A stretch of 64,000 bases of DNA from an uncultured Nitrospirota bacterium (GCA_964481895.1 CAYZUL010000005.1:942-64941); one strand, 5' to 3'; numbered from the stretch's first letter, positions 32,137-56,906 are shown. The notes: generated from the sequence alone by a model not told the origin. A program made the numbers and translations.

Positions 32137-32200
32137 TTCGAGGCTGTTGAGCCGGAAAAAAGATAAATCGGAAAGAGAGGAGGAACTAAGGTAAGATCCG
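32137..32200 (+). repeat. 64-nt conserved leader element, copy A (upstream of uspA-A); copy B is at 54452..54515
   Basis: ttcgaggctgTtgagccggaaaaaagataaatcggaaagagaggaGgaactaAggtaaGatccg matches 54452-54515 at 60/64 positions. Both copies are intergenic and lie 5' of stress genes (uspA here, ftsH there). Confidence 0.6.
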
Positions 32201-32261
32201 ACATAAATTAATAACAAATATTTTTGCAACTTAGTGCTAGTTAACGGGGAAGGGGGTTGAT

Positions 32262-32714
32262 ATGAAGGGGCAAAAGAGGAAGTTATTGAGTATCAGGAAG
32301 ATCATGGTCCCTACCGATTTTACAACATATTCAGACCATGCGATTGAATATGCAATCATGGTTGCCAGGAAATTCAAGGCAAAGATGCTGCTTGTCCATG
32401 TGATCGAACCGCTAGCTTATAGTGTAACTGATACTATGCAAGTTTTTGATCATTATACGGCATTAAAGACAGTCGCCAAACCGATCCTGGAAAACCTTCA
32501 AAAGAGGTTGTTAAAAAAAGGCCTTAAGGTAGACAGTATCCTTCTCGATGGGAATCCCTATCTTGAGATAGTCAAAAAATCCCGCGAGGCTGGGGTGGAT
32601 CTGATTATCATGGGGACCCATGGCCGTACGGGCATCGAGCATATCCTTATGGGGAGTGTGGCTGAGCGGGTCGTCCGCCTGGCATCGTGTCCTGTGGTGA
32701 CTGTGAGGGGATGA
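32262..32714 (+). CDS. uspA: Universal stress protein (UspA family), paralog A
   Basis: 150 aa; USP fold motifs (ILVPTDFT..., GTHGRTG...GSVAE); about 80% aa identity to the ORF at 56454..56906. Confidence 0.8.
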   Translation: MKGQKRKLLSIRKIMVPTDFTTYSDHAIEYAIMVARKFKAKMLLVHVIEPLAYSVTDTMQVFDHYTALKTVAKPILENLQKRLLKKGLKVDSILLDGNPYLEIVKKSREAGVDLIIMGTHGRTGIEHILMGSVAERVVRLASCPVVTVRG

Positions 32715-32814
32715 TTAATAGAAGTTCTTTATGGGAGATCCGGTTTGGAAAAAGCAGATAAAAAATTCCCCTTAGTCTTTTGACAAAAAAAGGAGGAAAG
32801 AGTAAGCTAATTTT

Positions 32815-33183
32815 ATGGGGAGCAAGAAACCGTTTTTTCTTTTATTTCTAATCTTATCGTTTTCCATCTGGCTGATCTGCCCATGGAATAATCTATCCCT
32901 GGAGGCCTCATCATACGCTTCAACTCATACAGCCCATGGCCATCCTTCTGCCCACGAGGATGAGTCTCATCATGCCTCTAAAGGCATTGATCATGGCTGC
33001 ACGAACCCATTTTCCTACAGCAAGGAGGATACATCTTCTAAGATCTCATCGTCCTATATCGAAGCCCTGGAGATCGAGTCCTCCACTCATCAGGCAACAA
33101 CTGTCACAATTCAACTCTTCGATCCCCATCCCCCAAAGTTTCTTATCCATTTATACCAGATATATTCAGTCTATCTTCTTTGA
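32815..33183 (+). CDS. Hypothetical small secreted His-rich protein (uncertain)
   Basis: Signal-peptide-like N-terminus then a His/Ser-rich segment (THTAHGHPSAHEDESHHASKGIDH). RBS spacing is poor (18 nt), so this may not be a real gene. Confidence 0.25.
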   Translation: MGSKKPFFLLFLILSFSIWLICPWNNLSLEASSYASTHTAHGHPSAHEDESHHASKGIDHGCTNPFSYSKEDTSSKISSSYIEALEIESSTHQATTVTIQLFDPHPPKFLIHLYQIYSVYLL

Positions 33184-33269
33184 TTTTCATATCTTAATTT
33201 AAGCCTTAGATAATAGAAAGCCTGCTGGAATCTTATTGCAGGATAATTACAAGATATTGAGGATCAGAG

Positions 33270-34364
33270 ATGAACTGCAAAAAATTATTTAAATATTCCA
33301 TAACATCCATTTGTCTGCTCATTTCCATTTTCATCACGACCAATGTAATGGCCCATGAGAAGAGGGATCGTATCTTCTATCTTCCAGGGGAATACAACTT
33401 CGCCTTCTACAATAAACACCCTAAGGTCTATGGCACGGTGGGCGCTGATCACTATATCCACGCCATAGCCTTTGAGATCCTGTTTAGGTATGGGAGTGAG
33501 AATGACCTGCTTGAAAAAGAGATTTATGATAATGCGATTAGAGTCTGGTCTCATCCGCCAAAGTTTGGACTTACCATGGAGCTTATCTCCCCTGAATTCT
33601 CAAAGCTTGTCTGGAAGGCGACTAATATCTTTGACTGGGCAGACGCGCTCCATGAGCAGCTTTACGATATCCTGGCAGATGAGAGGATCAAGGATAAAAA
33701 GAAGGCATATGAGGAGGCTATTGCCTATTACCTTTCAGTGCCTGACCTTGCGCTATCGCCGGAACCGATCCCCATGGATGTTATGGACAACCAGTACTAT
33801 TCCGGCGCCTTCCGTATCAATTACCCCAAATTCAATGCCCTCCTTTGGGCATTTCATTGGCTTGAGCCTGTCTTCTATGAGGGGCTCTTTCTATTCGACG
33901 ACCCTGCTAAAAGGGAAAAGATATTGCAGATGTGGATAGAGGAGAATAATGACTGGTTTAAGAACCCGACCCAGAGGATGCCCCTTATGCGTGATTCTGC
34001 CTTCCAGTGGTCTAAGTTTGCCCCTGCAGCGGCAAACATATTCGACAATGTCCACACCCTGCACGGGATGATAGCCGATATTATGGCCTCCCCGAAGGTA
34101 AATGATAAGCAGGCAGAGATAACCAGGGCTATCAAGCTAATGCAGACACTGCCGGGATCGGATTCTAACAACAGGATGACCAAATTCCTTCCTTTAAGAC
34201 GTGATGGTAGCTACTGGAAGGATACATCTATGATGCAAGAGATGTTGAAGATGGGTCATGACCCGGTGGCCCAGATGCGCCAGGAGATGGAGGAGGAGAT
34301 GAAGAAGATGGAAGAGAATGCAGAAAGGATAAAAAAGATACCATACATTGAAAAAGGAGAATGA
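33270..34364 (+). CDS. Secreted protein of unknown function (Met-rich C-terminal tail)
   Basis: 364 aa with a good RBS (GAGGA, 7-nt spacing) and an N-terminal signal peptide. I recognised no family. The C-terminus reads MMQEMLKMGHD...QMRQEMEEEMKKMEE. It overlaps the next gene (ATGA). Confidence 0.55.
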   Translation: MNCKKLFKYSITSICLLISIFITTNVMAHEKRDRIFYLPGEYNFAFYNKHPKVYGTVGADHYIHAIAFEILFRYGSENDLLEKEIYDNAIRVWSHPPKFGLTMELISPEFSKLVWKATNIFDWADALHEQLYDILADERIKDKKKAYEEAIAYYLSVPDLALSPEPIPMDVMDNQYYSGAFRINYPKFNALLWAFHWLEPVFYEGLFLFDDPAKREKILQMWIEENNDWFKNPTQRMPLMRDSAFQWSKFAPAAANIFDNVHTLHGMIADIMASPKVNDKQAEITRAIKLMQTLPGSDSNNRMTKFLPLRRDGSYWKDTSMMQEMLKMGHDPVAQMRQEMEEEMKKMEENAERIKKIPYIEKGE

Positions 34365-35164
34365 CGATGGGATCGAAGATCTTTACGATTTTACTGATAT
34401 TGCTTACTTGTTGGCCCTTGTCATTATCTGCACAGGTAGATTTCAGGAATTCTGACCGGGGGAGGCCTATATTAATTGAGGATGCGTACCCTATAGAGTA
34501 TTTAGCCTTTGAACTGCAAGGCGGAATTCAATATGAGAGAAGAGAGGGAGAGAATGGGTTAGGTTTTAAGCCTGAGTTCAGGTTTGGGGGCTATAAGAAT
34601 CTACAGATAGGGGTTGAGGCTGACTATAATAGCCTGTGGAATGAAAAAAGCAGATCAGGCATCTCCGATACCATTGTTCATCTCCTCTACAACTTTAATC
34701 AGGAGGGGCTTAATGTCCCCGCCCTGGCGGTCAGGCTTGATGGAGGGTTGCCAACAGGGGGACTTGGAACCGATAATTTTCATGCAAGCGGCGCCGTCCT
34801 GGCAACCAAGACATTAGGATACTTAAGGCTCCATTCAAATCTATCCTATACCCTGGGCCCAACGTCCTCAGAGGGCCAGGGATTGGATATCTCCAGATAT
34901 TTTTATGGTATAGGCTTTGACTATACCTGGCCCTTGAGATTTATCATGATAATGGGGGATGTTGTGGCAAAGAAACCTATTGATGGCGAAAAGGCTGAGG
35001 TAGCACTGGAGTTCGGGACAAGGATGCAGTTCCATCCTAAGTTCGTATTTGATGTTGGGATCGGAACAGGCGCCCTTAGGGAAGATGGAAGCAATGTCAT
35101 TGCCACAGTAGGGCTAACGTACATCTTTGGGGTCAGGAGGGTCTCATTGGGTAGCATAAAATGA
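34361..35164 (+). CDS. Predicted outer-membrane beta-barrel-like protein (family uncertain)
   Basis: 267 aa; signal peptide (LLTCWPLSLSAQ) and alternating hydrophobic beta-strand patterns; translationally coupled to the preceding secreted protein. The C-terminus does not end in an aromatic residue, so the outer-membrane-protein call is tentative. Confidence 0.45.
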   Translation: MTMGSKIFTILLILLTCWPLSLSAQVDFRNSDRGRPILIEDAYPIEYLAFELQGGIQYERREGENGLGFKPEFRFGGYKNLQIGVEADYNSLWNEKSRSGISDTIVHLLYNFNQEGLNVPALAVRLDGGLPTGGLGTDNFHASGAVLATKTLGYLRLHSNLSYTLGPTSSEGQGLDISRYFYGIGFDYTWPLRFIMIMGDVVAKKPIDGEKAEVALEFGTRMQFHPKFVFDVGIGTGALREDGSNVIATVGLTYIFGVRRVSLGSIK

Positions 35165-35262
35165 TGGGCTGTGGCCGGGTTGGATATCGGGTGGTATACT
35201 TGCTTTAGGATTTATAACTATCCTTACTAACCTAAAGATCTGCAAGCAAAAGTGGTGGCTCC

Positions 35263-36393
35263 ATGGACAAAATGGATCAACCTATAGAAATAGTAGGCGC
35301 CGGACCTTCAGGCCTGGTAGCCGCCATTACCCTGGCGCATCATGGGTACAGCGTGGTGGTGTATGAAGAGAGGTCAGATGTGGGACACCGCTTCCATGGG
35401 GATTTTCAGGGACTTGAGAACTGGAGCAGCGAAGAGGATATTACCAACCTCCTCTCCGGGATGGGGATCAAGATCAATTTCTTCTGTCAACCTTATGCGG
35501 AAGGCGATCTGTATGGACCTAATCTTCGAAGGGTTCCTGTCCGATCTCCCTTACCCCTTTTCTATCTCGTCCGCCGGGGTAGCGGGCAAGGGACATTGGA
35601 CTATGGCCTGAAGGCCCAGGCCGTTGAGGCAGGCGTGAAGTTCCTCTTTGGAAGCCGAAAGGAAAAGCTTCCTGACAGAGGGATTATCGCAATCGGCCCA
35701 AAGGTGGCAGATGCGATAGCAAAGGGGATGCTCTTTGAGACCAGACTGCCGGACATGGCAGCGGTCATCTGGGATGACAGCCTGGCACCAAAAGGATACG
35801 CCTATCTCCTGGTACATGAGGGGCACGCTACGCTGGCAACCGTACTATTCAGGTATTATAGAGATGAGCGTTATTATTTTAACCGGACATTGGAGACATT
35901 TCAAAGACTTTATCCCTTTCAGATGAAATCGCCAAGAGAATTTGGCGGTTTCGGGAACTTCTCGATCAGGTCAACAGGATATCATGGAGGAAAACTTTAT
36001 GTAGGAGAGGCAGCCGGGTTCCAGGACGACCTGTTCGGGTTCGGGATGCGCTATGCAATGACCTCCGGCTATTTTGCGGCCCGGTCAATCATCGAGGGTA
36101 TAGACTATGATAAGTTATGGAAGAGAGAACTCCTGTCGCTGCTTAGGGCTTCGACGGTGAATCGCCTTATCTTTGAGTTTATCGGGAATAGGGGCTATAA
36201 ATTTCTGGTTCGAAGGATATCGTATGCCAGAGACGTTAGGGCCTGGATGCAATGGTTTTACCGGCCATCGATCAGTAAGTCTATTTTGTACCCATTTGCA
36301 GCGCTGATGGGGCGGTACCGGTTGCATTTTAAGGATTATAGTTGCAGTCATGAGGATTGTGATTGCGTCTGGTGCCGCTGCCAACGGGAATAG
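35263..36393 (+). CDS. FAD-dependent oxidoreductase (geranylgeranyl-reductase-like) with Cys-rich C-terminus
   Basis: N-terminal dinucleotide-binding motif IVGAGPSGLVAAITLA; C-terminal tail CSHEDCDCVWCRC. Confidence 0.7.
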   Translation: MDKMDQPIEIVGAGPSGLVAAITLAHHGYSVVVYEERSDVGHRFHGDFQGLENWSSEEDITNLLSGMGIKINFFCQPYAEGDLYGPNLRRVPVRSPLPLFYLVRRGSGQGTLDYGLKAQAVEAGVKFLFGSRKEKLPDRGIIAIGPKVADAIAKGMLFETRLPDMAAVIWDDSLAPKGYAYLLVHEGHATLATVLFRYYRDERYYFNRTLETFQRLYPFQMKSPREFGGFGNFSIRSTGYHGGKLYVGEAAGFQDDLFGFGMRYAMTSGYFAARSIIEGIDYDKLWKRELLSLLRASTVNRLIFEFIGNRGYKFLVRRISYARDVRAWMQWFYRPSISKSILYPFAALMGRYRLHFKDYSCSHEDCDCVWCRCQRE

Positions 36394-36421
36394 AAATTTG
36401 AAGAAATATCTTGGGTCTTCT

Positions 36422-37216
36422 ATGGGTTTGCAGGGCAAAGAGATTTCATCAATGAAGGCCGCAGTAAAGGCGTGCCATTTGTGTGGGGCCTCTATTACCG
36501 GTCTCCCCTTTGTCCGCAAAGGGGAGGTCTGCTGTTGCGAAGGGTGCCTCCTTAAGGAAAAAGAATTCCGGGCGATCAAGGCTGAGAGGGACAACGCCTA
36601 TTTAGCCCTGGCAGAGGCCCTGGTGGCGGCCTTGGATACCAGGGAGCATGAGACAGGCCTCCATTCCAAACGTGTTGCCTGTCATACGCTGGTGCTTGCA
36701 AGACGGTTCATAAGTGAGCAAGACATCTTGCGTCAGGTTTACTGGGGCGCGCTGCTGCACGATATAGGCAAGATTGGTATCCCGGATACGATCCTCATGA
36801 AGGAGGGGTCTCTGACTGACAGTGAGTGGATAGAGATGAGGAGGCACCCTGAGATCGGCTACGATATTCTGAAGCCCGTCCCGTTCCTGACCGGGGCAGC
36901 GGAGATGGTAATAACTCATGAAGAGCGGTACGATGGCGCAGGCTATCCTCGCGGCCTTAAAGGGGAGGGCATCCCTTTTGGGGGCCGGCTCTTTGCTGTT
37001 ATTGATGCTCTGGATGCCATGACCTCAGATCGGCCTTACCGGAGGGGTTTGTCCTTTGATACGGCCAAAATGGAGATTCTCCGCATGTCCGGTACCCAGT
37101 TTGATCCAAAGGCAGTGGAAGCCTTCCTTGCGGAAGAGCCTACCCTCCGGGAAATGGTAGACTTAAAGTGCGGGGATGTGCAGCTTGATCCCGGAATATC
37201 TAAGAAGGGAGGATGA
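36422..37216 (+). CDS. HD-GYP domain c-di-GMP phosphodiesterase with N-terminal Cys-cluster (TRASH/YHS-like) domain
   Basis: HD ([12 protein letters not shown]) and GYP ([14 protein letters not shown]) motifs; the N-terminal cluster reads [25 protein letters not shown]. Start set to the internal ATG at 36422 because the track ORF start (36350) overlaps the upstream gene. The stop overlaps the copA start. Confidence 0.7.
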
Positions 37217-39546
37217 TTATGGCCATAGATCCTGTATGCGGCATGACAGTGGATGAGGAAAAGGCAGTGGGCAGGTCCATTCATGAAGGGACTACCTATT
37301 ACTTCTGTTCCACGCAATGTCTTGGCAAGTTTGAGGCCAATCCCTCCGGTTTTACCCTGTCAGCATCGCATTTGGCAAAGGCGAAGGAGGGAATCCATAC
37401 TATGCCGGTAACAGAGGCCAAATCCTCCAGGGGGATGGCCAAGGATCCCATTTGTGGCATGGTGGTCGATAAGGCGACCGCGCTCAAAACAGAGCAGGGC
37501 GGCCGTACCTATTATTTCTGCAGCGTAGGATGCCTGCACACCTTTGAATCCCCTGAGGCTGAGCTTAAGTCAATGCGGAGACGCGTAATGATTGCCCTTA
37601 CAGGGGTCCTTGCCCTGGCAATATTACGGGCCGCCGCCTTCCTGGCGCTGGCGGCCGGAGCCACAATCGTCACCTGGGCGCCCATTCCACAACTCCCCTG
37701 GTTCACATGGGGGATGTGGCTTTTTATCCTGGTAACACCAGTTCAGTTTATCGGTGGCTGGTCTTTCTACGTAGGAACATGGAATGCTATTCGCACCAGG
37801 ACAATTAATATGGACTTCCTGATCGCCCTTGGTACGACCGTTGCTTACATTTATAGCGTGGCCGTAATATTTTTTCCCTGGGTCTTGCCGATCAAGGTTG
37901 AGGAGCGTGATGTCTATTTCGAGGTCTCTGCCGTCATTATTGCTTTTGTACTCCTGGGTAAATACATGGAGGAGATAATCAAGAAACGCTCCTCTGCGGC
38001 CGTTAGAAAGCTCTTGGATTTAAAACCGGCCACGGCCCGGGTGATCCGGAATAATACTGAGATGGAGATTCCTGCGGAGACCCTGATGGTGGATGAGATC
38101 GTTGTTGTGCGCCCTGGGGAGAAGATTCCGACTGATGGGGTCGTCCAGGAAGGGTCCTCCTCAGTGGACGAATCGATGCTGACCGGCGAATCAATGCCAG
38201 TGGAAAAAAGGCCTGGGATAGAGGTAATCGGCGGCACGCTGAACAGGACGGGTATGTTCCGGTTTAGGGCTACCAGGGTGGGGGCAGATACGGCCCTGGC
38301 CCAGATCATTAAAATGGTAGAGGAGGCGCAGGCCAGCAGTGCGCCGATCCAGCGGCTTGCCGATCAGGTTACCGGCTATTTTGTTCCGGCCGTGGTAGGG
38401 GTGGCCTTCCTTTCCTTTGTCATCTGGTGGCTCCTGGGCAATTTTCCCCAAGGTCTCCTCTCCTTTATTGCGGTGCTCATCATATCATGCCCATGTGCCT
38501 TAGGCATTGCCACGCCGGCAGCGCTCATGGTTGGTGTCGGCAAGGGCGCCGAAGGGGGCATCCTAATCCGGGGCGGTGAGGTGTTGGAACGTGCCCAGAA
38601 GCTAACAGCAGTGGTCTTCGACAAGACCGGGACATTAACCCGCGGGGAACCTGATGTTACCGATATTATCCCGTTTTCTGAATTTCCTGAATCTGAAATT
38701 CTAAAGTCTGCTGCTGCCGTTGAGGCAGGCTCGGAGCATCCACTGGGTGAGGCGATTGTCCGAATGGCCAACCACAGGGGACTTGATCTTTCAAAAGTTA
38801 TTGAGTTCGAGGCCCTCCCTGGCCATGGTATCAAGGGGGTGATTGATGGTCATCGAATTCTCTTGGGCAACCGGCGACTGTTCAGAAAAGAAGGTATCGA
38901 ACTTACAAAAGCGGAAGAAATAATGACGCGCCTTGAATCGGAGGGGAAGACCGCCATGCTGGTGGGCCGAGAGGGTAAATTGATTGGCGTCATTGCAGTT
39001 GCTGATACCCTCAAGCCTGAAGCAAAGGAGGCCGTTGCTTCCCTCCGGGACGAAGGGGTAGAAGTCATTCTCCTTACCGGCGATAACCAGCGTACTGCCA
39101 ATGCCATAGCGAAGGAACTCGGGATCAAACTGGTCATTGCCGAAGTCCTGCCGGGCGACAAGGCGCAGGTTGTAAAGGATCTTCAGAGGCAGGGCAAGAT
39201 CGTAGCCATGGTAGGAGATGGCGTTAACGACGCCCCGGCGCTGGCGGCAGCCGATATTGGTATTGCCATAGGCTCCGGTTCAGATGTAGCCAAAGAGACA
39301 GGAGGGATAATTTTAATCAGGAATGATGTGCGTGATGTGGTGTCCGGCATACGCCTCTCCCGCGCCACCATGCGAAAGATCAGACAGAACCTCTTCTGGG
39401 CCTTTATTTATAATAGCGTGTCTATTCCGGTGGCGGCCCTCGGTTTTTTAAACCCGATCATAGCCGCAGCAGCGATGGCTTTAAGTTCGCTCTCCGTGAT
39501 TGTAAACTCGGCGTTATTGAAGCGGTTAAAGTTTTCTGCAATGTGA
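37213..39546 (+). CDS. copA: Copper-translocating P1B-type ATPase with two N-terminal YHS/TRASH domains
   Basis: 777 aa; two YHS motifs (DPVCGMTVD...YYFCSTQC and DPICGMVVD...YYFCSVGC), the CPC transmembrane metal site ([11 protein letters not shown]) and DKTGTLT / GDGVNDAP motifs. Confidence 0.9.
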
Positions 39547-39596
39547 AAATACGTGCCGATTTATACTTTATCTTTCTAAGATGGGGAGGATAGAAA

Positions 39597-41450
39597 TTGG
39601 AAATAAAAGAGCAGCAGCTCTCCCTCTGGTACTTCCTGGTTGCCTTCTTGATCCTGTTGACCATACAGAATTTTCTTTTAACGCCTCACCTTGAAAACCT
39701 CTCTTATAGTGATTTCAAGGTTCTCCTGAAGGCTGGGAAGGTGGATAATCTGACCCTTAAGCAGCGTGTTATCTCAGGTACGCTGAAAAAGGAAGGACTG
39801 GAAGATATCCTTCCTAAAGAGAAGATTGAAGAGCTTCAAAGGATTAGTAAGGGGGAGCATCGCTTTATCACGGTCAGGGTGGATGACCCATCCTTAATCC
39901 AGGAACTTGAGGCAGCTAAAGTGCGCTTTGCCGGCCAGGTGGAGAGCACCTGGTTTTCGACCATCCTCTCCTGGGTTATCCCAGCCGTTATCTTCTTTGC
40001 ATTATGGATCTTGCTAATGAAAAGGATGGGGGCAGCCAGCGGCATCATGGAGATAGGCAAAAGTAAGGCCAAGGTCTATATGGAAAAGCAGACAGGGGTG
40101 TCCTTTAATGATGTTGCTGGGGTGGATGAGGCGAGAGCTGAGTTGATGGAGGTGGTGGAATTCCTGAAGAACCCTCAGCGCTATCGACGCCTGGGCGGGA
40201 AGATCCCGAAAGGGGTCCTCCTGGTAGGTGCACCTGGGACAGGGAAGACCCTCATGGCCAAGGCAGTGGCCGGAGAAGCGGGGGTTCCCTTCTTTAGCAT
40301 AAGCGGGTCGGAATTTGTAGAGATGTTCGTAGGCGTTGGTGCGGCGCGGGTACGGGACCTTTTCGCCCAGGCCGAAGGAAAGGCCCCTTGCATCATATTT
40401 ATTGATGAGCTTGATGCCCTAGGCAAGGTGCGCGGATTTAATCCAGTTGGCGGGCATGATGAGCGGGAGCAGACATTAAACCAGCTATTGGTAGAGATGG
40501 ATGGGTTTGATACAAACAAGGGGGTCATCATAATGGCTGCAACCAACAGGCCGGAGATCCTGGACCCGGCCCTGCTCCGGCCCGGGCGATTTGACCGGCA
40601 CGTTGCCCTTGACAGGCCGGATCTAAAAGGAAGGGAAAAGATCCTCCATGTCCATAGTAAAGCCGTTAAGCTATCGCCAAAAGTCGATCTCTCTGTCATT
40701 GCCGCCAGGACCCCGGGGTTTGTAGGGGCGGATCTTGCCAACCTTGTCAATGAGGCCGCATTGTTAGCTGCCCGCAAAGGTAAGGATGCAGTAGAGATGG
40801 TTGATTTCGATGACGCGATAGACCGGATCATTGCAGGACTAGAGAAAAAGACGCGGGTGATGAATCCGAAGGAGAAGGAGACCGTTGCCTATCACGAGGC
40901 TGGTCATGCCATAATTGCCGAATCCCGTCCGCACGTAGACCGGGTTTCAAAGATCTCCATCATTCCCCGTGGTGTTGCCGCATTGGGGTATACACAGCAG
41001 CTTCCCACGGAGGACAGATATCTTCTTAAGAGGACAGAACTGCTTGATCGGCTCGATGTGCTTCTTGGAGGCAGGGTGGCCGAGGAGATTGTTTTCGGTG
41101 ATGTCTCTACCGGGGGCCAGAATGACCTCCAGCGGGCCACAGACTCGGCGCGCCATATGGTAACACAGTATGGGATGAGCGAGCGCCTTGGCTTGGCCAC
41201 ATTTGAAGAGCCGCGCACCTCTCCCTTTTTAAATATCCCTATGCCCCAGGGCCAGAGGGAATACAGTGAAAGGACAGCCCAGGCTATCGATGAAGAGATC
41301 CAAAAGCTCTTAAAGGAATCCCACGCGCGCGTCAACGAGACATTGATTTCAAAACGCTCTATGATGGATTCCCTGGCAAAACTTCTCCTTGAAAAGGAGG
41401 TGGTCGACCGGCTAACCCTGGATAAACTAATGGAAACAGATAGAGAATGA
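39597..41450 (+). CDS. ftsH: ATP-dependent zinc metalloprotease FtsH, paralog A
   Basis: 617 aa; AAA Walker [12 protein letters not shown] region, HEAGH zinc motif; TTG start with a GGGGAGGA RBS. Confidence 0.9.
40108..41326 (+). repeat. 1,219-bp block 100% identical to 55066..56284 (ftsH paralog core)
   Basis: Direct comparison of the two ftsH copies: the flanks are about 80-85% identical, the central block is perfect, and one SNP marks each boundary (40107/55065 and 41327/56285). Confidence 0.85.
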
Positions 41451-41493
41451 GACTGACGCCAGGAGTTGAATTTCTATTTCAAGAGGTTTTTGC

Positions 41494-42309: not shown

Positions 42310-42349
42310 ACAGGTGTACCAGGGAAACAATAAACAATAGGAGGGTCAA

Positions 42350-43078: not shown

Positions 43079-43111
43079 AATTTTAGGTCTTCGTTAACCT
43101 GGAGGATCAGC

Positions 43112-43462
43112 ATGAAAATGATTTTGGCGATCGTACGAAGTGAATGCCTGGAAAAGCTGGAGAAAACACTCCTTAAGATTGGAGAAAAAGGTTTCTCGGT
43201 AAACAAGATCCAGGGCATGGGAGAGCTACGTGAATATGGCTACATAATATTTGACCTGGTGAGTCACATCAGGATCGAGATTATTACTTCAGAGGATCGG
43301 GTAGCTGAAATAAAGGACGCTATTGTTGAGGCCGGCTGGACAGGTTACGCTGGTGATGGGCTGATCGCAGTCCTGCCTGTAGATGAGTTTACCAAGATCC
43401 GTACTGCAAAAAGGGTTGATCCTCCGCGCAAAAAGCGGATAAGTAGGAAAAAAGGGCCGTAA
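43112..43462 (+). CDS. P-II (GlnB)-like family protein
   Basis: 116 aa; ferredoxin-like beta-alpha-beta pattern resembling P-II (ILAIVRSE...FSVNKIQGMGE...). P-II-like genes commonly accompany metal-efflux loci. Confidence 0.55.
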   Translation: MKMILAIVRSECLEKLEKTLLKIGEKGFSVNKIQGMGELREYGYIIFDLVSHIRIEIITSEDRVAEIKDAIVEAGWTGYAGDGLIAVLPVDEFTKIRTAKRVDPPRKKRISRKKGP

Positions 43463-46407: not shown

Positions 46408-46417
46408 GAGTTCGCCT

Positions 46418-49595: not shown

Positions 49596-50772
49596 CAGTC
49601 TGATAAAAAAGGCCATCTGCTTAGTGCTTGGCTGCGGTCTATTCCTGTATGGTTTATCTGCAAGAGTAGCAGGTGCGGCAGATATTTGGCAGCAAGGAGA
49701 CTCTTCTCTGAAGCTTACAGGCTACTACAAGAATCTCCTGTTCAGCTCAGAGACGTTCTTTCCTGGAACTGAGCAATTTACAGTCGATCTAAACCGCCTC
49801 AGGTTGAAACTGCAGGGAAGGGCAAGGGACTGGGCGGCCCTGGACATCCAGTATGATCATGAGGCCTTCCTTGGGAGTTTTCTTAAGACGGGTCTGTTCA
49901 ATATACAGAAGAATCAAGAACCAGATACCTATCTTGACCTTGAAAATGCCTACTTAGACCAGAACAGAATCTTTGCGCGCCACCGGCTCTACAGGGGATA
50001 TCTGACAATTTATTCTCCCTATGCCGATCTGACAATAGGGCGTCAGAGGATCGCCTGGGGCACGACCCGCTTCTGGAACCCGACAGACCTGCTAAATCCC
50101 TTTAATCCGATCCAACTTGAGCGTGAGGAGAGAAGCGGGGTAGATGCCATTCTGACCGATGTGAATCTGGGGTCACTGTCAAAGCTGAGCCTGGTATATG
50201 CGCCGCAAGATTCCTGGGAGGAATCGAGTTCTGCGGCCCGCCTGCGAACCAACATTTCAGGTTTTGATCTCTCTGTGATGGGTGGATTGTTCAGGAAAGA
50301 CCAGGTTGTGGGGTTTGATTTTGCAGGGGCGATAAAAGATATAGGTGTTCGGGGTGAGGCTACCTACACCTCAGCAGACTTGGAGGATAATTTTATCAGG
50401 GCTGTCTTAGGCGCCGACTATACCTTACCGAACACATTCTCTATTATGATTGAGTATTATTACAATGGCGAGGGCAAGGCCGATGAGAAAGACTATAATT
50501 TTCAGAGGATCTTCTCAGTGGAACTTCTGAGCCTGGCGCGCCATTACATTGGGATCAGTATCGGATACGACCTTACACCCCTTTTAAGATGGGACAACTA
50601 TGCCATTCTCAATCTCAATGACAAAAGCCTCTTCTTCAGCCCCAACCTTACCTATTCGGTCATTGCTGATCTGGACTTGTCATTGGGCATCCAGATATTT
50701 GAAGGATCTGACAGGAGCGAGTATGGAGCTTTACATAATTTATACTATACCCAGCTACAATGGTTTTTCTGA
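49588..50772 (+). CDS. Outer-membrane beta-barrel protein (alginate-export-like family)
   Basis: 394 aa; signal peptide; motif TIGRQRIAWGTTRFWNPTDLLNP; C-terminal aromatic ...QLQWFF typical of outer-membrane beta-barrels; 8-nt overlap with the permease gene. Confidence 0.55.
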   Translation: MFSSLIKKAICLVLGCGLFLYGLSARVAGAADIWQQGDSSLKLTGYYKNLLFSSETFFPGTEQFTVDLNRLRLKLQGRARDWAALDIQYDHEAFLGSFLKTGLFNIQKNQEPDTYLDLENAYLDQNRIFARHRLYRGYLTIYSPYADLTIGRQRIAWGTTRFWNPTDLLNPFNPIQLEREERSGVDAILTDVNLGSLSKLSLVYAPQDSWEESSSAARLRTNISGFDLSVMGGLFRKDQVVGFDFAGAIKDIGVRGEATYTSADLEDNFIRAVLGADYTLPNTFSIMIEYYYNGEGKADEKDYNFQRIFSVELLSLARHYIGISIGYDLTPLLRWDNYAILNLNDKSLFFSPNLTYSVIADLDLSLGIQIFEGSDRSEYGALHNLYYTQLQWFF

Positions 50773-51031
50773 ATAGAAAGCAGTCATTGCGAGCACCCTA
50801 AGGGTGTGTGGCAATCGCAAAGACAATTTCTATATCGGAATCGGGGATGAAGATTTTGCTGTTTTATTTGACATAGGCAATCAGATATGGTAGTTATACC
50901 ATCATTCTATAATTAGTCTATCCCAATGTTGTTGTGAGGAGAAGGCGAAACTGTTTCGTAAAATGCAATGTGAAATAAGGTTATACTGGTGCTGATCGGA
51001 CATTGAAGTATTCAAAGGGTCAAATAGATAG

Positions 51032-51445
51032 ATGAATAGAAGTGATTTAAAACTACTATCACTCATCAGGCTTAGAGAAGCACGGGTACTATTAAAAAAT
51101 AAAAATTATGAAGGAGCTTATTATCTTTGCGGCTATGTTATTGAATGTGGGCTGAAGGCTTGTATTGCAAAGAAAACTAAGAGATATGATTTTCCAGACA
51201 AAAAAGCTGTCAATGATAGTTACTGTCATAATCTTGCAACACTTGTTAATACAGCCGGTCTTAGCATAGAATTAGATAAAGAAAAGAAAAGCTATTCAAT
51301 ATTTGAAAGTAATTGGAGTACCGTTAAAGACTGGTCACAAGTGAGTCGTTATGAAAAACATACTGAGAAAGAAGCGCAAGATCTTTTTTATGCAATCACA
51401 GATAAAAGACATGGAGTTTTGAAATGGTTAAAGCGGCATTGGTAG
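51032..51445 (+). CDS. HEPN domain protein
   Basis: 137 aa; helical HEPN pattern (REARVLLKNKNYEGAYYLCGYVIECGLKACIAKK...SRYEKH); lies in an AT-rich islet. Confidence 0.55.
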   Translation: MNRSDLKLLSLIRLREARVLLKNKNYEGAYYLCGYVIECGLKACIAKKTKRYDFPDKKAVNDSYCHNLATLVNTAGLSIELDKEKKSYSIFESNWSTVKDWSQVSRYEKHTEKEAQDLFYAITDKRHGVLKWLKRHW

Positions 51446-51490
51446 AATAAGATATACAAGAGCCAGTTCAAGTTCAGGAGGCAGTTCAAA

Positions 51491-51880
51491 ATGTTTGTTA
51501 AAGCTGCATTGGTAAAAGAAGATTTACACGATGGCAAGAGATTAATTGAAGCGTTGGATAAAGCAAACTTTAAAGTCCAAGCCGCGCTATGGTTCTACTT
51601 GGCTGATTCTGATGAATGGCGGCTTTATATTTCTTCCCCATTTGTAGAAAAAGAAGGGCCTAGAAAATCTTATAATTTTATTCAAAAAATCTTGGCAAGG
51701 CTTGCGCCACCTTCTAGTTTCTCTTTAACAGACATTACAGTTCTAAGTCCTTCTAGCAATTTGGTTAAACTAATGAGAGTAGCGGTCCGGACTGGGCCTG
51801 GCATATCGGGCATCCGATTTACTCGAAATGTTATAAATAATACTTTGATAGAGGATGCATATATTTATCGTATTGTGTGA
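51491..51880 (+). CDS. Hypothetical protein, partner of the HEPN gene (no recognisable motif)
   Basis: 129 aa, same strand, 45 nt downstream of the HEPN gene. It lacks the GS..DxD nucleotidyltransferase motif expected of an MNT partner. Confidence 0.4.
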   Translation: MFVKAALVKEDLHDGKRLIEALDKANFKVQAALWFYLADSDEWRLYISSPFVEKEGPRKSYNFIQKILARLAPPSSFSLTDITVLSPSSNLVKLMRVAVRTGPGISGIRFTRNVINNTLIEDAYIYRIV

Positions 51881-52227
51881 ACCATTTTAATGCTACTTTT
51901 CACAACACACGTTTAATGATTGGTCTTGCGTGATCCTTTTATTTAGTGTAAAAATCTTGTCCTGTTATAGTCACCTCACATCTGTCTCTTAAGATATTCT
52001 ATGGCATCCTCTCTCGTAGTCAATATACCTAAGATCTGTTTTTCCCTTAAGTCGGCAAGGGGTAAAGGGAGGGGGTAAAGGGGACGGTTCTCGTTAATTT
52101 ACAAAAGTGACGGGAGAGGATAGATTTTAAGCATGCCTAGCATAAGTAGGGACTATAATTTATAGGGACAGCGACCATTTAAGAAGAATTTCTGCTCACA
52201 ACGGTAGATAGCAGAATCTTAACAACC

Positions 52228-52533
52228 TCATGCAATATCATCTAAATTTCGTGACCCATGAACAACTCGGTGAATTTCGATAATTTTACTGCGGACTATG
52301 TAAAATACAAGGTAGGATTCAATCACGAGGATGCGATAGCCTGAATTTTTAAGCTTGTCATCTTTCGGTACCCGGCCAAGAAACGGGTGGGATTTAAGGC
52401 TGCCAATGTGATGATTGAGTTTATCAATAAAAATTGCGGCATTGGCCGGACTGACATTTCCAATCCAGTCTAAGATCGAGACAAGATCGTCAACGGCAAC
52501 AGGAAGGTAACGAAGGGTGTATCTATTAGCCAT
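52228..52533 (-). CDS. parE: ParE/RelE-family type II toxin
   Basis: 101 aa; ParE-like pattern (...YRILVIESYLVFYIVRSKIIEIHRVVHGSRNL); 8-nt overlap with the upstream antitoxin gene. Confidence 0.7.
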   Translation of the reverse strand: MANRYTLRYLPVAVDDLVSILDWIGNVSPANAAIFIDKLNHHIGSLKSHPFLGRVPKDDKLKNSGYRILVIESYLVFYIVRSKIIEIHRVVHGSRNLDDIA

Positions 52534-52792
52534 GCAAGTGTTGCATGAGTTTTTTCATCACTTGCGAATGGGTAAGCCCTTTTTCTCCGCTGGCGGCCTG
52601 GGCCTGAGCAACAGCGAGTTTTTCGAAAAGCTCGACCCTTGCCTTTAGCCTTTCATAGTGTTCGATGCTCATTACAACAAGGTCGCCCTCGCCATTAGTT
52701 GTCAGATAAACAGGTTCATCCTGTTCATGGCACAATGAGGCAATATCTCTTGTTTTATTACGAAGACTTGAGATAGGTTTTATTATCGGCAT
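52526..52792 (-). CDS. phd: Phd/YefM-family type II antitoxin
   Basis: 88 aa; Phd/YefM N-terminal fold pattern (IIKPISSLRNKTRDIASLCHEQDEPVYLTTNGEGDLVVMSIEHYERL). Confidence 0.7.
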   Translation of the reverse strand: MPIIKPISSLRNKTRDIASLCHEQDEPVYLTTNGEGDLVVMSIEHYERLKARVELFEKLAVAQAQAASGEKGLTHSQVMKKLMQHLHG

Positions 52793-52981
52793 AGGTTCTC
52801 CTCTAAATGGATAGTATAGAGATAAATTATCACCTAATTATGATAAAATCAAGAACGAATTATGTGACACATTTTCAGGCGACCGGGTGCGTATAAAAAA
52901 TCAGGCAATTTATTTTTCCGGGTGATATACTATTTTAAGGAAAAAGGATTGAGTCGATAGGTAGCTTCTACAGTCACGACC

Positions 52982-53047
52982 TTAAGCTTCTTACCATTAA
53001 TTGTAAACTCAGTCCTATTGAAGTGGTTAAGGTTTCCTGCTTGTTGA
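52982..53047 (+). pseudogene. Remnant of a copA-like P-type ATPase 3' end
   Basis: 52998-53040 aligns at about 80% with the last 43 nt of copA coding sequence (39488-39531), and the same frame reads ...LSFLPLIVNSVLLKWLRFPAC* versus copA ...[20 protein letters not shown]. There is no upstream coding continuity. Confidence 0.5.
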
Positions 53048-53069
53048 ACACAGATATTTTGAGGAGATC

Positions 53070-54428
53070 ATGATGGAGATCGCTTTTCTTGGTGCAACAG
53101 GTACTGTGACAGGGTCGAAGTATTTACTTGCAATTGGATCTAAGAAGATATTGGTGGACTGCGGCTTGTTTCAGGGATTCAAACAGTTGAGGCTGAGAAA
53201 CTGGGCGCCGCTTCCAGTCGACACGACGGAAATTGACGCAGTCATACTGACACATGCACATCTGGATCATAGTGGTTATCTGCCTCTCCTGGTCAAGGAC
53301 GGCTTCGCAGGCAAGGTGTATTGCAGTCATTCCACACGCGACCTCTGCGCAATCCTGCTGCCGGACAGCGGGCACCTCCAGGAAGAAGAGGCAGAATATG
53401 CCAACAGACATAAATATTCCAAACATGCCCCTGCGCTTCCCCTTTATACCAAAGCGGATGCCGAACATGCGCTGCGCCAACTTTTACCGGTTGATTTTGA
53501 GACCGACATTGATCTGGGTGGAGACGTGACCCTGCGATTCTTACCCGCCGGACATATCCTTGGTTCGTCCTTTGTTTTACTGAGGAATGCCGGTACTGCC
53601 ATTCTTTTTTCCGGAGACCTAGGCCGCCCAAAAGATCTCATTATGAGTGCCCCGGCCTCAATCCATAGGGTGGATTATCTGGTTGTCGAGTCCACCTATG
53701 GAAACCGCCGCCACGACCCTTCAGATTCAAAGGCGGCCCTGGCTGTAATCATCAACCGTACGGTTGAACGTGGCGGGATAATTGTAATACCCGCTTTTGC
53801 CGTCGGTCGCGCCCAGGCGCTCCTTTTTCTTATTTACCGGCTCAAGATTGAAGGTGCTATCCCAGACATTCCGGTCTTTCTTAACAGCCCTATGGCGGCC
53901 GAAGCAACCTATCTTTACTGCAACCATCGGAGCGAACATAGGCTTACCGCCGATGAGTGCCGGGCAATGTGCCGCGCCGCGCATATGATCAACAGCGCGG
54001 AGGAATCCAAAAAGGTCAACAGACTCAGAGATCCAATGATCTTGATCTCGGCAAGCGGTATGGCAACAGGGGGACGCGTACTGCACCATCTCAAGGCCTT
54101 TGCCCCCGATCCGCGCAACACCGTCCTCTTTGTTGGCTTTCAGGCCGGCGGAACCCGGGGCGCAGCCATGGTAAATGGCGTTAAAACGATCAAGATCCAT
54201 GGGGAATACATTCCCGTGCATGCAGAGGTAGCGGTCATGGAAAATCTCTCTGCCCACGCGGACTATACCGAGATAATGGATTGGTTGAGCCATTTCGACT
54301 CACCGCCAACGAAAACTTTTATCACCCATGGCGAGCCTGCTGCTGCTGATGCGCTGAGGCACCGGATTGAGGAGAAGCTGGGTTGGCGCTGCCTTGTTCC
54401 TGAATACCTGGAAAGGGTTTCACTTTAG
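53070..54428 (+). CDS. MBL-fold beta-CASP family RNA-metabolising hydrolase
   Basis: 452 aa; metallo-beta-lactamase motif ILTHAHLDHSGYLP, beta-CASP motifs and a C-terminal RNA-specificity region; GC is higher than in the flanking islet. Confidence 0.8.
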   Translation: MMEIAFLGATGTVTGSKYLLAIGSKKILVDCGLFQGFKQLRLRNWAPLPVDTTEIDAVILTHAHLDHSGYLPLLVKDGFAGKVYCSHSTRDLCAILLPDSGHLQEEEAEYANRHKYSKHAPALPLYTKADAEHALRQLLPVDFETDIDLGGDVTLRFLPAGHILGSSFVLLRNAGTAILFSGDLGRPKDLIMSAPASIHRVDYLVVESTYGNRRHDPSDSKAALAVIINRTVERGGIIVIPAFAVGRAQALLFLIYRLKIEGAIPDIPVFLNSPMAAEATYLYCNHRSEHRLTADECRAMCRAAHMINSAEESKKVNRLRDPMILISASGMATGGRVLHHLKAFAPDPRNTVLFVGFQAGGTRGAAMVNGVKTIKIHGEYIPVHAEVAVMENLSAHADYTEIMDWLSHFDSPPTKTFITHGEPAAADALRHRIEEKLGWRCLVPEYLERVSL

Positions 54429-54451
54429 CGGTTAATGCACGCGTAATGATG

Positions 54452-54515
54452 TTCGAGGCTGCTGAGCCGGAAAAAAGATAAATCGGAAAGAGAGGATGAA
54501 CTATGGTAAAATCCG
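54452..54515 (+). repeat. 64-nt conserved leader element, copy B (upstream of ftsH-B)
   Basis: 60/64 identical to 32137-32200. Confidence 0.6.
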
Positions 54516-54554
54516 CTCAAGAGATCCGGCTGGGAAAGAGGGCAGAATAGAAAG

Positions 54555-56435
54555 ATGGAAAAGAAACAGAAGGAGTTTTCGCTCTGGTACTTCGTAATCG
54601 CCTTCCTGATCCTGATAGCCATTGAGAATTTTCTGTTGTCCTCCCACCTTGAAAACCTCTCTTATAGCGATTTTAAGGTACTATTAAAGGCAGGAAAGGT
54701 GGAGGATCTAACCATTAGAGAAAAGGTTATATCGGGAAAGCTGAAGAAGGAGGAGCTAGAGGGGCTCCTCCCTAAAGAGAAGGTAGAGGAACTTCAAAGA
54801 CTCGGTAAAGGGGAGTATCACTTTATTTCGGTCCGGGTGGATGACCCTTCGTTAATACAGGAGTTGGAGGCAGCGAAGGTGCGCTTTGCCGGTCAGGTGG
54901 AGAGCACCTGGTTCGGGAGCCTCATGTCGTGGGTTTTGCCCGCAGTAATCTTCTTTGCCCTCTGGATCTTTTTTATGAAACGGATGGGTGCGGCAAGCGG
55001 TATTATGGAAATTGGCAAGAGTAAGGCCAAGGTATATATGGAAAAGCAGACAGGGGTGTCCTTTGATGATGTTGCTGGGGTGGATGAGGCGAGAGCTGAG
55101 TTGATGGAGGTGGTGGAATTCCTGAAGAACCCTCAGCGCTATCGACGCCTGGGCGGGAAGATCCCGAAAGGGGTCCTCCTGGTAGGTGCACCTGGGACAG
55201 GGAAGACCCTCATGGCCAAGGCAGTGGCCGGAGAAGCGGGGGTTCCCTTCTTTAGCATAAGCGGGTCGGAATTTGTAGAGATGTTCGTAGGCGTTGGTGC
55301 GGCGCGGGTACGGGACCTTTTCGCCCAGGCCGAAGGAAAGGCCCCTTGCATCATATTTATTGATGAGCTTGATGCCCTAGGCAAGGTGCGCGGATTTAAT
55401 CCAGTTGGCGGGCATGATGAGCGGGAGCAGACATTAAACCAGCTATTGGTAGAGATGGATGGGTTTGATACAAACAAGGGGGTCATCATAATGGCTGCAA
55501 CCAACAGGCCGGAGATCCTGGACCCGGCCCTGCTCCGGCCCGGGCGATTTGACCGGCACGTTGCCCTTGACAGGCCGGATCTAAAAGGAAGGGAAAAGAT
55601 CCTCCATGTCCATAGTAAAGCCGTTAAGCTATCGCCAAAAGTCGATCTCTCTGTCATTGCCGCCAGGACCCCGGGGTTTGTAGGGGCGGATCTTGCCAAC
55701 CTTGTCAATGAGGCCGCATTGTTAGCTGCCCGCAAAGGTAAGGATGCAGTAGAGATGGTTGATTTCGATGACGCGATAGACCGGATCATTGCAGGACTAG
55801 AGAAAAAGACGCGGGTGATGAATCCGAAGGAGAAGGAGACCGTTGCCTATCACGAGGCTGGTCATGCCATAATTGCCGAATCCCGTCCGCACGTAGACCG
55901 GGTTTCAAAGATCTCCATCATTCCCCGTGGTGTTGCCGCATTGGGGTATACACAGCAGCTTCCCACGGAGGACAGATATCTTCTTAAGAGGACAGAACTG
56001 CTTGATCGGCTCGATGTGCTTCTTGGAGGCAGGGTGGCCGAGGAGATTGTTTTCGGTGATGTCTCTACCGGGGGCCAGAATGACCTCCAGCGGGCCACAG
56101 ACTCGGCGCGCCATATGGTAACACAGTATGGGATGAGCGAGCGCCTTGGCTTGGCCACATTTGAAGAGCCGCGCACCTCTCCCTTTTTAAATATCCCTAT
56201 GCCCCAGGGCCAGAGGGAATACAGTGAAAGGACAGCCCAGGCTATCGATGAAGAGATCCAAAAGCTCTTAAAGGAATCCCACGCCCGTGTCAAGGAGACA
56301 TTGATCTCAAAACGCTCCATACTGGAATCCCTGGCAAAGCTCCTCCTTGAAAAGGAGGTGATTGACCGTGCGACGCTTGACCATCTGCTGGAGACACAGA
56401 GGAATGCTGTCGTGATAACAAAAAAAGGAGTCTAA
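54555..56435 (+). CDS. ftsH: ATP-dependent zinc metalloprotease FtsH, paralog B
   Basis: 626 aa; same motifs as paralog A; the central 1,219 bp are identical to paralog A, while the N- and C-terminal regions are diverged. Confidence 0.9.
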
Positions 56436-56453
56436 GGAGAGGAAGGAGATAAG

Positions 56454-56906
56454 ATGAAGGAACAAAAAAGAAAGTTTTTGCCGATCAAGAAGATCCTTGT
56501 GCCGACTGATTTTACAGTCTATTCAGATCATGCAATTGAATATGCAATTATGGTTGCCAGGAAATTCGAGGCAAAAATCCTGCTTATCCATGTAATCGAA
56601 CCGTTTGCTTATAGCGTAACTGATACAGTCCAAATAATTGATCATTATACGGCATTAAAGACAGTGGCACGGCCTATCCTGGACAACCTGCAAAAGAGGT
56701 TGTTAAAAAAAGGCATTAAGGTAGACTGTACCCTTCTCGATGGGAATCCCTATCTTGAGATAGTCGAGAAATCCCGTCAGGCAGGTGCGGATCTGATTAT
56801 CATGGGGACCCATGGCCGTACGGGCATCGATCATATCCTTATGGGGAGTGTGGCTGAGCGGGTTGTACGCCTGGCGCCATGCCCTGTATTAACAGTAAGG
56901 GGCTGA
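56454..56906 (+). CDS. uspA: Universal stress protein (UspA family), paralog B
   Basis: 150 aa; about 80% identical to the uspA at 32262. Confidence 0.8.
   Translation: MKEQKRKFLPIKKILVPTDFTVYSDHAIEYAIMVARKFEAKILLIHVIEPFAYSVTDTVQIIDHYTALKTVARPILDNLQKRLLKKGIKVDCTLLDGNPYLEIVEKSRQAGADLIIMGTHGRTGIDHILMGSVAERVVRLAPCPVLTVRG

Follow-up and report, generated by a model that had tools for sequence, protein, structure and literature searches.

Within a 64,000-nt stretch of DNA from an uncultured Nitrospirota bacterium (hereafter, the window), a 68-nt sequence was present twice as a direct repeat, at positions 32133-32200 and 54448-54515, with 63 of the 68 nucleotides identical. The explanation that we favored, with a probability of about 0.7, was that this sequence forms the beginning of the intergenic spacer behind the carboxyltransferase (CT) gene of a narrow group of Nitrospirota, and that this border became duplicated when two versions of the locus recombined. 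Judging from the sequence comparisons, the repeat appeared to be the scar of a rearrangement, rather than a shared element with a demonstrated role in regulation. We judged it to mark an island or indel junction of an ordinary kind, situated in a variable locus.

The repeat was slightly longer than the 64-mer reported in a preliminary description of this DNA, where the shared leader started at 32137 and 54452 (60/64 identical); the observation itself was confirmed and extended. All features given below were located on the plus strand. The left copy (leader A) adjoined the CT gene, and the right copy (leader B) was near-identical to the single copies of relatives L001 and L003. Leader A was distinct from leader B, L001, and L003 at repeat positions 4, 15, 50, and 55. 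A 45-mer pattern derived from the repeat matched the window only at the two repeat copies, with 0 matches expected from 100 shuffles. Copies were also sought in 185,579 species genomes, 241 million metagenome contigs, and viral contigs. The 20-mer core of the leader occurred once in each of two species-representative genomes (genome_contigs), both times at the orthologous site, with 0 matches in JGI metagenome contigs and 0 in viral contigs; the left half of the leader likewise had 0 matches in metagenome contigs. Thus, the leader was a rare sequence as far as these collections reach, rather than a generic repeat scattered over many unrelated sites, which was the outcome that the preliminary description had named as contradicting its proposal.

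What the leader belonged to became apparent from its position in the relatives. The CT gene (30583-32127) encoded a methylmalonyl-CoA carboxyltransferase (Pfam Carboxyl_trans, E 5e-197; NCBIfam mmdA-like). The leader started 5 nt past the CT stop codon, and it was a single-copy sequence in every relative that had it (L001/L004, L003, L011, and L012). The gene behind the leader was not constant among them: two arrangements occurred, with either ftsH or usp in this place. Namely, the nearest relative, L001 (GCA_016234185.1), had one leader between CT and ftsH in the simplest order found among the relatives, which was CT, leader, 39 nt, ftsH, and usp. In L003, L011, and L012, the single leader was followed by the 39 nt, another 33 nt, a usp upstream region, and an A-type usp gene. 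The 39-nt segment, which was the rest of the CT-ftsH intergenic region, was located at 54516-54554 behind leader B, was found in L001 and L003, and was missing behind leader A. There, the leader was directly followed by the upstream region of the A-type usp (32201-32261), which was common to L003, L011, and L012 but placed 72 nt further from the leader in these genomes.

The next relatives out (L002, L010, and L013) lacked the leader. Close relatives were few, with about five protein clusters in all exceeding 87% CT identity. In L002 (FtsH 88% and CT 91% identical), a cytochrome c gene started 17 nt after CT. L010 and L013 (CT 87-89%) had a common post-CT segment of about 105 nt that was unlike the leader, and the genes behind it differed (PrpD in one and cytochrome c in the other). 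Since the same segment preceded different genes, the post-CT sequence seemed to travel with CT and the locus border and not with the stress genes. We found no leader-like sequence upstream of ftsH in the FtsH subfamily members L005, L006, and L007 or upstream of the ftsH-A gene of the window.

Comparison with L001 also defined an indel between the two leaders. Positions 1-9961 of L001 aligned with 22307-32200 of the window, and positions 9893-12457 then aligned with 54448-57010, so that 32200 was joined to 54448 and the block at 32201-54447 (22,247 bp) was absent. The earlier proposal of a duplication followed by island insertion or recombination therefore stood in that accessory DNA had been gained or lost between the leaders; the direction of this event, insertion or deletion, could be either. 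No relative was found to carry the same block, and no copy of it was found elsewhere. Its genes included usp-A, several unknown genes, a copper ATPase, ftsH-A, a methyltransferase, a Met-rich protein, P-II, HtrA (43601-44680), DUF2933/ICMT, a LolA-like/MacB ABC set, HEPN and ParE/Phd toxin-antitoxin genes, and a beta-CASP metallo-beta-lactamase nuclease. The latter was the last gene of the block (53070-54428) and ended 19 nt before leader B. The preliminary description had assigned a copper-homeostasis gene set to the part between usp-A and ftsH-A. This held for the Cu-type P1B ATPase with N-terminal YHS domains at 37213-39546 (614.5 bits for TIGR01511, the NCBIfam model of copper-translocating P-type ATPases, whose cut-off is 397; Pfam E1-E2_ATPase and YHS). 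Otherwise, the genes encoded a flavoprotein, a protein with an HD domain, and three products without a known family (32815-33183, 33270-34364, and 34361-35164), the last of which had only a sub-threshold match to Phenol_MetA_deg.

The two sets of usp, ftsH, and Met-rich genes noticed earlier were indeed present and proved to be diverged paralogs. Both usp-A (32262-32714, 150 aa) and usp-B (56454-56906, 18 nt after ftsH-B) encoded universal stress proteins (Pfam Usp, E 1e-33 each) with 84% protein and 85.7% DNA identity. The usp alleles displayed a mosaic pattern, and usp-A was 90.7% identical in nucleotides to the usp of L003, and usp-B was 96.5% identical to that of L001. An exact-sequence lookup of usp-A returned no record. 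Full FtsH architecture (FtsH_ext, AAA, AAA_lid_3, and Peptidase_M41) was found in both ftsH-A (39597-41450, 617 aa, TTG start) and ftsH-B (54555-56435, 626 aa), whose products were 91% identical; ftsH-B passed the FtsH family model TIGR01241 with 819.7 bits against a cut-off of 600 and was orthologous to the L001 ftsH (98% aa). The secreted Met-rich proteins A (42350-43078) and B (63368-64000, running off the window end) were clear paralogs with 74% DNA identity. For protein A, neither Pfam, NCBIfam, nor PDB sequence searches returned a family. The upstream sequence that the two genes were said to share was a stretch of only some 20 nt surrounding the ribosome-binding site. Copy A was not simply copy B split by the copper genes, as had been suggested, because the gene order was inverted (usp then ftsH in A, ftsH then usp in B), ftsH-A, which had no leader, was separated from the preceding ATPase gene by a short region of its own (50 nt), and the genes behind usp-A (32773-35983) were located in this neighborhood in L002 as well.

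Leader A was about 93% identical to the L001 leader, a value inside the range observed for the left flank (90-98%), and leader B with the right flank was 96-97% identical to L001. The identity of 93% between the leaders thus equaled the allelic divergence of the flanks, and the usp and ftsH copies, at 74-86%, were older. Since the leaders were about as diverged as the flanks were from L001, the leader identity required no additional constraint, and the leaders were more alike than the genes because the leader was a recent duplicate at the level of alleles (about 7% divergence) located beside old paralogs. Only four near-identical versions of the leader were available (window A, window B, L001, and L003, the latter the same as L011 and L012); with these three counted as one among four independent versions, the statistics left room for some constraint on the leader. 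We also compared the left flank with L001 in 400-nt bins as a test for an imported, more diverged tract. Identity varied from 74% to 98%, which was suggestive at best of a left flank uniformly more diverged than the right one.

This explanation of the leader identity bore directly on the earlier interpretation of the leader as a promoter/operator or a 5'-UTR RNA. In the form that we considered, such an element (as an RNA, for example, a thermometer, riboswitch, or leader-peptide attenuator) would be kept upstream of the two stress genes by selection and would co-regulate usp-A and ftsH-B/usp-B. Both leaders did precede stress genes, and their 93% identity exceeded that of the adjacent coding paralogs; this excess was, however, accounted for by allelic age. 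Moreover, the leader was confined to one narrow clade, where it invariably came right behind the CT stop codon, and it was absent from L002, L010, L013, and other members of the FtsH subfamily. We therefore considered a cis-regulatory origin of the repeat unlikely, and the claim of a conserved regulatory element was not supported, since the sequence followed the CT stop codon in all other genomes that had it.

By eye, an extended -10-like site could be seen at the 3' end of the leader (54501-54509 in copy B), reading TGGTAAAAT in copy B and TGGTAAGAT in L001 and L003; copy A had AGGTAAGAT. A consensus scan for sigma-70-type promoters (-35/-10 with 16-18 nt spacing) detected none in or beside either copy. 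Inspection of the region upstream of usp-A for CIRCE-like or sigma-54-like motifs revealed nothing convincing. A scan for intrinsic terminators found none in the repeat, where a GGCT-N4-AGCC hairpin was followed by an A run and not a T run. With regard to the RNA-motif search that had been proposed earlier, the only gathering-level match of Rfam 15 in the window was a tRNA at 4103-4176, and matches around both copies at E <= 10 were at the noise level (8-16 bits against cut-offs of 40-96). The 68-mer folded no better than its shuffles on either strand of either copy (z = -0.26 for A and -0.20 for B). The full 5' region of copy B folded somewhat better than shuffles (z = -2.0), whereas that of copy A did not (z = +0.76), and the pairing in B needed the 39-nt extension at 54516-54554 that copy A lacked. 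A Shine-Dalgarno sequence with a 15-codon uORF, ending 5 nt before the ftsH ATG, was present in copy B, L001, and L003. We rejected a leader peptide as a shared feature: both ATGs were lost in copy A, and both differences among the uORF orthologs were non-synonymous. The leader may still contain a promoter of whichever gene follows, and it would then be partly regulatory in the sense of the preliminary description, but this would not be the reason for its repetition.

Next to the border duplication, a site-specific origin had to be weighed, in which the 68-nt copies would be attL and attR of a 22-kb genomic island integrated after CT and excisable as a 22,315-bp circle. Imperfect direct repeats exactly bounded a block that was present or absent among close relatives, the crossover apparently lay at a sharp repeat edge, and the cargo included accessory resistance genes, with ParE/Phd and HEPN toxin-antitoxin genes in a low-GC stretch near one block end. 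On the other hand, Pfam and NCBIfam searches of all ORFs of 32201-54447, with lenient thresholds for the unassigned ones, revealed no recombinase domain, and integrase, recombinase, excisionase, and transposase domains were likewise not detected across the ORFs of 30-64 kb. The only tRNA of the window adjoined an MFS transporter gene and not an integrase, and the block was found in a single place. Furthermore, the block opened with usp-A, whose upstream region belongs natively to this locus in L003; this argued for recombination internal to the locus and not for a foreign element. Altogether, an integrated island with att sites seemed quite unlikely.

In the border-duplication model, a hypervariable accessory locus, with FtsH/Usp and metal-stress genes, would have its left border at the position after CT. 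A 22.2-kb block placed between a CT-leader arrangement and a leader-ftsH-usp arrangement would leave the border sequence present twice as a direct repeat, with the block opening with a second, diverged usp and its own upstream region. The two leaders would then derive from a single chromosomal site as alleles that are about 7% apart, beside much older paralogs, and would have been put in tandem when two versions of the locus recombined. Since the four A-specific differences spanned positions 4-55, any crossover must have been at the outermost left end of the repeat. Such a position would be easier to reconcile with an illegitimate or site-specific join than with simple homologous crossing over inside the repeat, and the most likely route would be homologous pairing on one side, with leader B joined illegitimately at its left edge. 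Once formed, the repeat could allow RecA to delete the block, recreating the L001 state.

A separate observation, absent from the preliminary description, was that the two ftsH genes were 100% identical over 1,219 nt (40108-41326 and 55066-56284, 0 mismatches). Outside this tract, they differed at 111 of 511 positions before it and at 32 of 124 after it, leaving the gene ends 74-78% identical. Since L001 was 96.2% identical to the tract, the tract was a B-lineage sequence. It could be explained either by gene conversion or by a collapsed repeat in the assembly; the source contig was from a metagenome-assembled genome, and short reads make it difficult to assemble perfect repeats of 1.2 kb. From this tract and the mosaic usp alleles, the usp/ftsH modules appeared to be still exchanging sequence: paralogs that share one genome would recombine, with 1.2 kb of ftsH-B overwriting ftsH-A.

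The same features raised the possibility that the tandem arrangement itself was an artefact, with two strain variants or a separate replicon threaded into one contig. Apart from the metagenomic source and the perfect internal repeat, which was beyond the short-read span, an independent k-mer assembly broke at the leader. This was contig L008 from a Logan assembly of run SRR4343435, which ended within the identical core of the repeat, as a true repeat predicts, and which contained the same junction between the beta-CASP gene and leader B. Mis-threading through shared k-mers predicts hybrid leaders, but leader A had all four A-variants and leader B all four variants of the B/L001 type. There was no homology left of leader B to support a false join, and ftsH-B was colinear with L001 across the identical tract. 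Thus, we regarded an assembly artefact as highly improbable.

A more speculative proposal was that the post-CT sequence acts as a dedicated docking site, recombinase-independent or served in trans, where cassettes with FtsH, Usp, and metal-stress genes are swapped and stacked and where the 68-mer is both the junction and a portable promoter. By analogy, its logic would resemble that of the integron attI/Pc, a hotspot of cassette exchange. This proposal was compatible with the sharp left-edge junction, with either ftsH or usp located behind the same leader, and with the second lineage having its own post-CT segment before different genes. Nevertheless, we considered it very unlikely.

If the border was duplicated as we propose, the locus provides a caution, since a short sequence upstream of two genes that seemed to be a regulatory motif would really be the duplicated border of an indel. 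It would also illustrate how uncultured groundwater Nitrospirota build tolerance to metal and proteotoxic stress at one variable chromosomal site. Diverged FtsH-Usp modules would be stacked there with copper export and envelope-protease genes and then homogenized by gene conversion.

Among known systems, the window resembled island and indel junction repeats (attL/attR, Campbell-type, and homology-facilitated illegitimate recombination) in that an imperfect repeat of tens of nucleotides bounded the 22-kb block, the nearest relative without the block had a single repeat copy, and the cargo comprised resistance and toxin-antitoxin genes. It differed from them in having no integrase or transposase, no tRNA target, and a first gene, usp, native to the locus. 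Of the features expected of integrative elements, direct repeats at both ends and presence or absence among relatives were observed; an element-encoded tyrosine or serine recombinase was not, and the target was the intergenic site after CT. Unlike a transposon or IS, the window had a 68-nt imperfect duplication exceeding the 2-15 bp of a target duplication and no transposase domain. The sharply bounded 1,219-nt tract, matching the lineage of one copy, was similar to homogenization of the tuf/rrn type, although its perfect identity may be inflated by the collapse of near-identical repeats in metagenome assembly. The ftsH2 island PACGI-1/TLPQC-1 (tLST) of Pseudomonas aeruginosa clone C (PMC6629908, PMC8290217) similarly has more than one ftsH in a variable, horizontally exchanged region, with further protein-quality-control genes beside it (HtrA and Usp in the window). 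In contrast to that island, the window was from a Nitrospirota metagenome-assembled genome, its partner genes were metal-related (YHS, Cu ATPase, and Met-rich), and no domain of the tLST core (sHSP20/HSP20 or ClpK/ClpG Clp ATPase), which in tLST accompanies the ftsH xenolog, DegP, and further genes, was found among the ORFs of 29.6-64 kb. The nearest plasmid-borne FtsH relatives (72% aa) were on Cupriavidus and Ralstonia megaplasmids, where the neighboring genes matched the partners in the window (DUF2933, an ICMT-family methyltransferase, an MBL-fold hydrolase, and UbiB). The co-occurrence of the same subfamily and partner genes on these megaplasmids suggests that this FtsH subfamily forms with its partners a widely exchanged module.

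The window, from a 65.8-kb contig of a Nitrospirae metagenome-assembled genome, contained a 68-nt direct repeat (the leader) at 32133-32200 (copy A) and 54448-54515 (copy B). The copies were identical at 63 of 68 positions, and the 64-mer originally noted matched at 60 of 64. A 45-nt pattern derived from the repeat occurred only at the two leader copies in the window, where no site was expected by chance. Family matches and paralog identities also confirmed the gene pairs of the preliminary description. Namely, usp-A (32262-32714) and usp-B (56454-56906) encoded Usp-family proteins (84% protein and 85.7% DNA identity), ftsH-A (39597-41450) and ftsH-B (54555-56435) encoded complete FtsH proteases, and the secreted Met-rich proteins encoded at 42350-43078 and from 63368 to the window end were paralogs (74% DNA identity). 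The proposed copper gene set was reduced to one demonstrable copper gene, a P1B ATPase with a YHS domain that passed the copper-translocating P-type cut-off. The remaining genes were not demonstrably related to copper; they encoded an HD-domain protein, a flavoprotein and three proteins without family (32815-33183, 33270-34364 and 34361-35164, the last with a sub-threshold Phenol_MetA_deg match only).

The nearest relative found was a groundwater Nitrospirae genome (L001/L004, GCA_016234185.1). L001 was colinear with the window over 22307-32200, then directly over 54448-57010 and then over 58557-61597, and it had one leader only, between the methylmalonyl-CoA carboxyltransferase gene (CT; 30583-32127, plus strand, in the window) and ftsH. 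Compared with L001, the window had 22,247 additional bases (32201-54447) with a leader copy at each border. This synteny supported and sharpened the earlier suggestion of a mosaic layout with an island. L003, together with Logan contigs L011 and L012, which were identical to it, represented a second population. Here CT was followed by the leader, the 39-nt continuation seen in L001, a further 33 nt and then an A-type usp preceded by the upstream region of usp-A; ftsH was not present in this arrangement. The leader was absent from relatives further out. In L002 (CT 91%, FtsH 88%), a cytochrome c gene lay 17 nt after CT, and the ftsH-usp pair sat downstream, behind another gene. L010 and L013 (CT 87-89%) had a common post-CT segment of about 105 nt (9546-9664 and 2593-2732, respectively), which was different from the leader and after which one had prpD and the other cytochrome c. 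This parallel to the 68-mer suggests that the site after CT was a recurrent breakpoint. Irrespective of the downstream gene, the leader started 5 nt past the CT stop in every known instance except copy B of the window. Sequences upstream of ftsH-A, and of ftsH at three loci with other members of the same subfamily (L005-L007), were unrelated to it. Since the leader followed the CT stop and was missing upstream of other ftsH genes and in the outer relatives, it was evidently part of the CT flank rather than attached to the stress genes, and it bordered a variable locus on the left.

The idea that the shared leader was a conserved regulatory element was accordingly not supported: it was tied to CT, had no Rfam match, folded no better than shuffled sequence (z about -0.2) and gave nothing in consensus promoter and terminator scans. 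By eye, its 3' end resembled an extended -10 in copy B (TGGTAAAAT) and in L001 and L003 (TGGTAAGAT); the corresponding end of copy A was AGGTAAGAT. A 15-codon uORF was found in copy B, L001 and L003, and its start codons were lost in copy A. Such features leave room for a promoter of the next gene within the leader, without turning it into a conserved element common to both copies. Of 185,579 species-representative genomes, two had a 20-nt leader core, each as a single occurrence at the orthologous site. The core was found in none of 241 million JGI metagenome records or the viral contigs, and a search of the JGI records with the leader's left half was likewise negative. This rarity ruled out a dispersed repeat or widespread motif located at many unrelated sites.

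The two ftsH genes had exchanged sequence or appeared to have done so. Positions 40108-41326 of ftsH-A equaled 55066-56284 of ftsH-B at all 1,219 positions, a perfect identity that repeat collapse might exaggerate in a short-read metagenome assembly, although the contrast with the gene ends (74-78% identical) stands regardless. The tract was preceded by 111 differences in 511 nt and followed by 32 in 124 nt. Either the middle of ftsH-A was replaced by B-lineage sequence through gene conversion, or near-identical repeats were collapsed in assembly. A B-lineage origin of the tract is indicated because L001 matched it (96.2%) to the same degree as the remainder of ftsH-B. Moreover, the usp alleles of the window, L001 (11900-12352), L002 and L003 (1954-2406) were mosaics of A-type and B-type segments. 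The two states alternated in blocks in L003, and usp-B of the window had a private patch where the remaining alleles all agreed with usp-A.

Leader A and the L001 leader shared about 93% identity, no different from the left flank around copy A (90-98% across 400-nt bins), and leader B and the right flank were 96-97% identical to L001. Two alleles with such distances from L001 are expected to share about 90% identity, and 93% was observed between A and B. On the other hand, the usp and ftsH copies were 74-86% identical outside the converted tract and are therefore paralogs or xenologs of much greater age. For the N- and C-terminal parts of ftsH-A, the 120 best database matches included no relative nearer than the B lineage (78%). 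Allele-level leaders beside older gene copies give the picture of two versions of one variable locus set in tandem rather than of a module duplicated in situ together with its regulatory leader.

Copy A had the complete set of four A-specific differences (at positions 4, 15, 50 and 55 of the repeat), and copy B had the L001/L003 states there. Since copy A had all of these states and copy B none, the recombination joint must lie where the repeat begins, at its far left edge. The CT end had no homologous counterpart to the left of copy B. A left-edge joint would fit a homologous exchange at one border combined with an illegitimate join at the other, and also a site-specific event; domains of recombinases, transposases or excisionases were not found in the 22-kb block. 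The only tRNA in the window (4103-4176) adjoined a minus-strand 394-aa ORF (4184-5368), an integrase candidate by position, which proved to be an MFS efflux transporter gene. The event could be a gain in the window or a loss in L001 by recombination between the repeats. The junction between the beta-CASP nuclease gene, the last of the block, and leader B was recovered in an independent Logan assembly (run SRR4343435), in which a contig was 100% identical to 49070-54492 and ended within the repeat core that is identical in both copies, which speaks against a mis-join. Close to its right end, the block had a low-GC stretch (35-41%; 51032-52792) with a HEPN-domain gene, then a 129-aa gene without assigned family, possibly the HEPN partner, and, on the other strand, a ParE/Phd toxin-antitoxin pair.

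Beyond the modules, a 1.16-kb segment (57395-58556) was missing from L001 and L002, and mobile-element features were not seen in it. The ORF at 57298-58596 (probable start near 57373) encoded a protein with a signal peptide and a CXXCH motif in its N-terminal part, and its last residues, MINF, were an ending typical of outer-membrane beta-barrels; it had no Pfam or NCBIfam match. The intergenic block 63189-63293, upstream of the second Met-rich gene, was 84% conserved in L002 (18093-18198), where it preceded a small YHS gene. It contained a promoter-like site (63239-63268; GTGGCA-18 nt-TATACT with TG), whose long spacer included an AT-rich quasi-palindrome. This block is a better candidate than the 68-mer for a shared metal-responsive promoter/operator.

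In other Nitrospirota metagenome-assembled genomes, this FtsH subfamily again stood with the same partners, which were YHS/TRASH proteins, DUF2933, ICMT/PEMT methyltransferases, beta-CASP MBL nuclease, UbiB kinase and Aq_1264_TM. Cupriavidus and Ralstonia megaplasmids encoded the same subfamily at 72% protein identity with the same partners adjoining. A set of DUF2933, ICMT-family methyltransferase, MBL-fold/beta-CASP hydrolase, HMA/YHS and UbiB kinase recurred across phyla, at L005, L007 and the Ralstonia pickettii plasmid pRp12D0 locus (L009; NZ_CP104383.1, 217601-237451). The subfamily and its partners look like a horizontally exchanged, apparently uncharacterised module. Overall, the locus was a repeat-bounded indel in a hypervariable stress/metal locus, with gene conversion between paralogs, and represented a fresh instance of already known phenomena. 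The nearest described analogue was ftsH2, an accessory gene on the TLPQC-1/tLST stress island of Pseudomonas aeruginosa (PMC6629908, PMC8290217). However, that island is defined by an sHSP20-ClpK/ClpG core, and since this core was missing here, the window locus was not a member of TLPQC-1/tLST.
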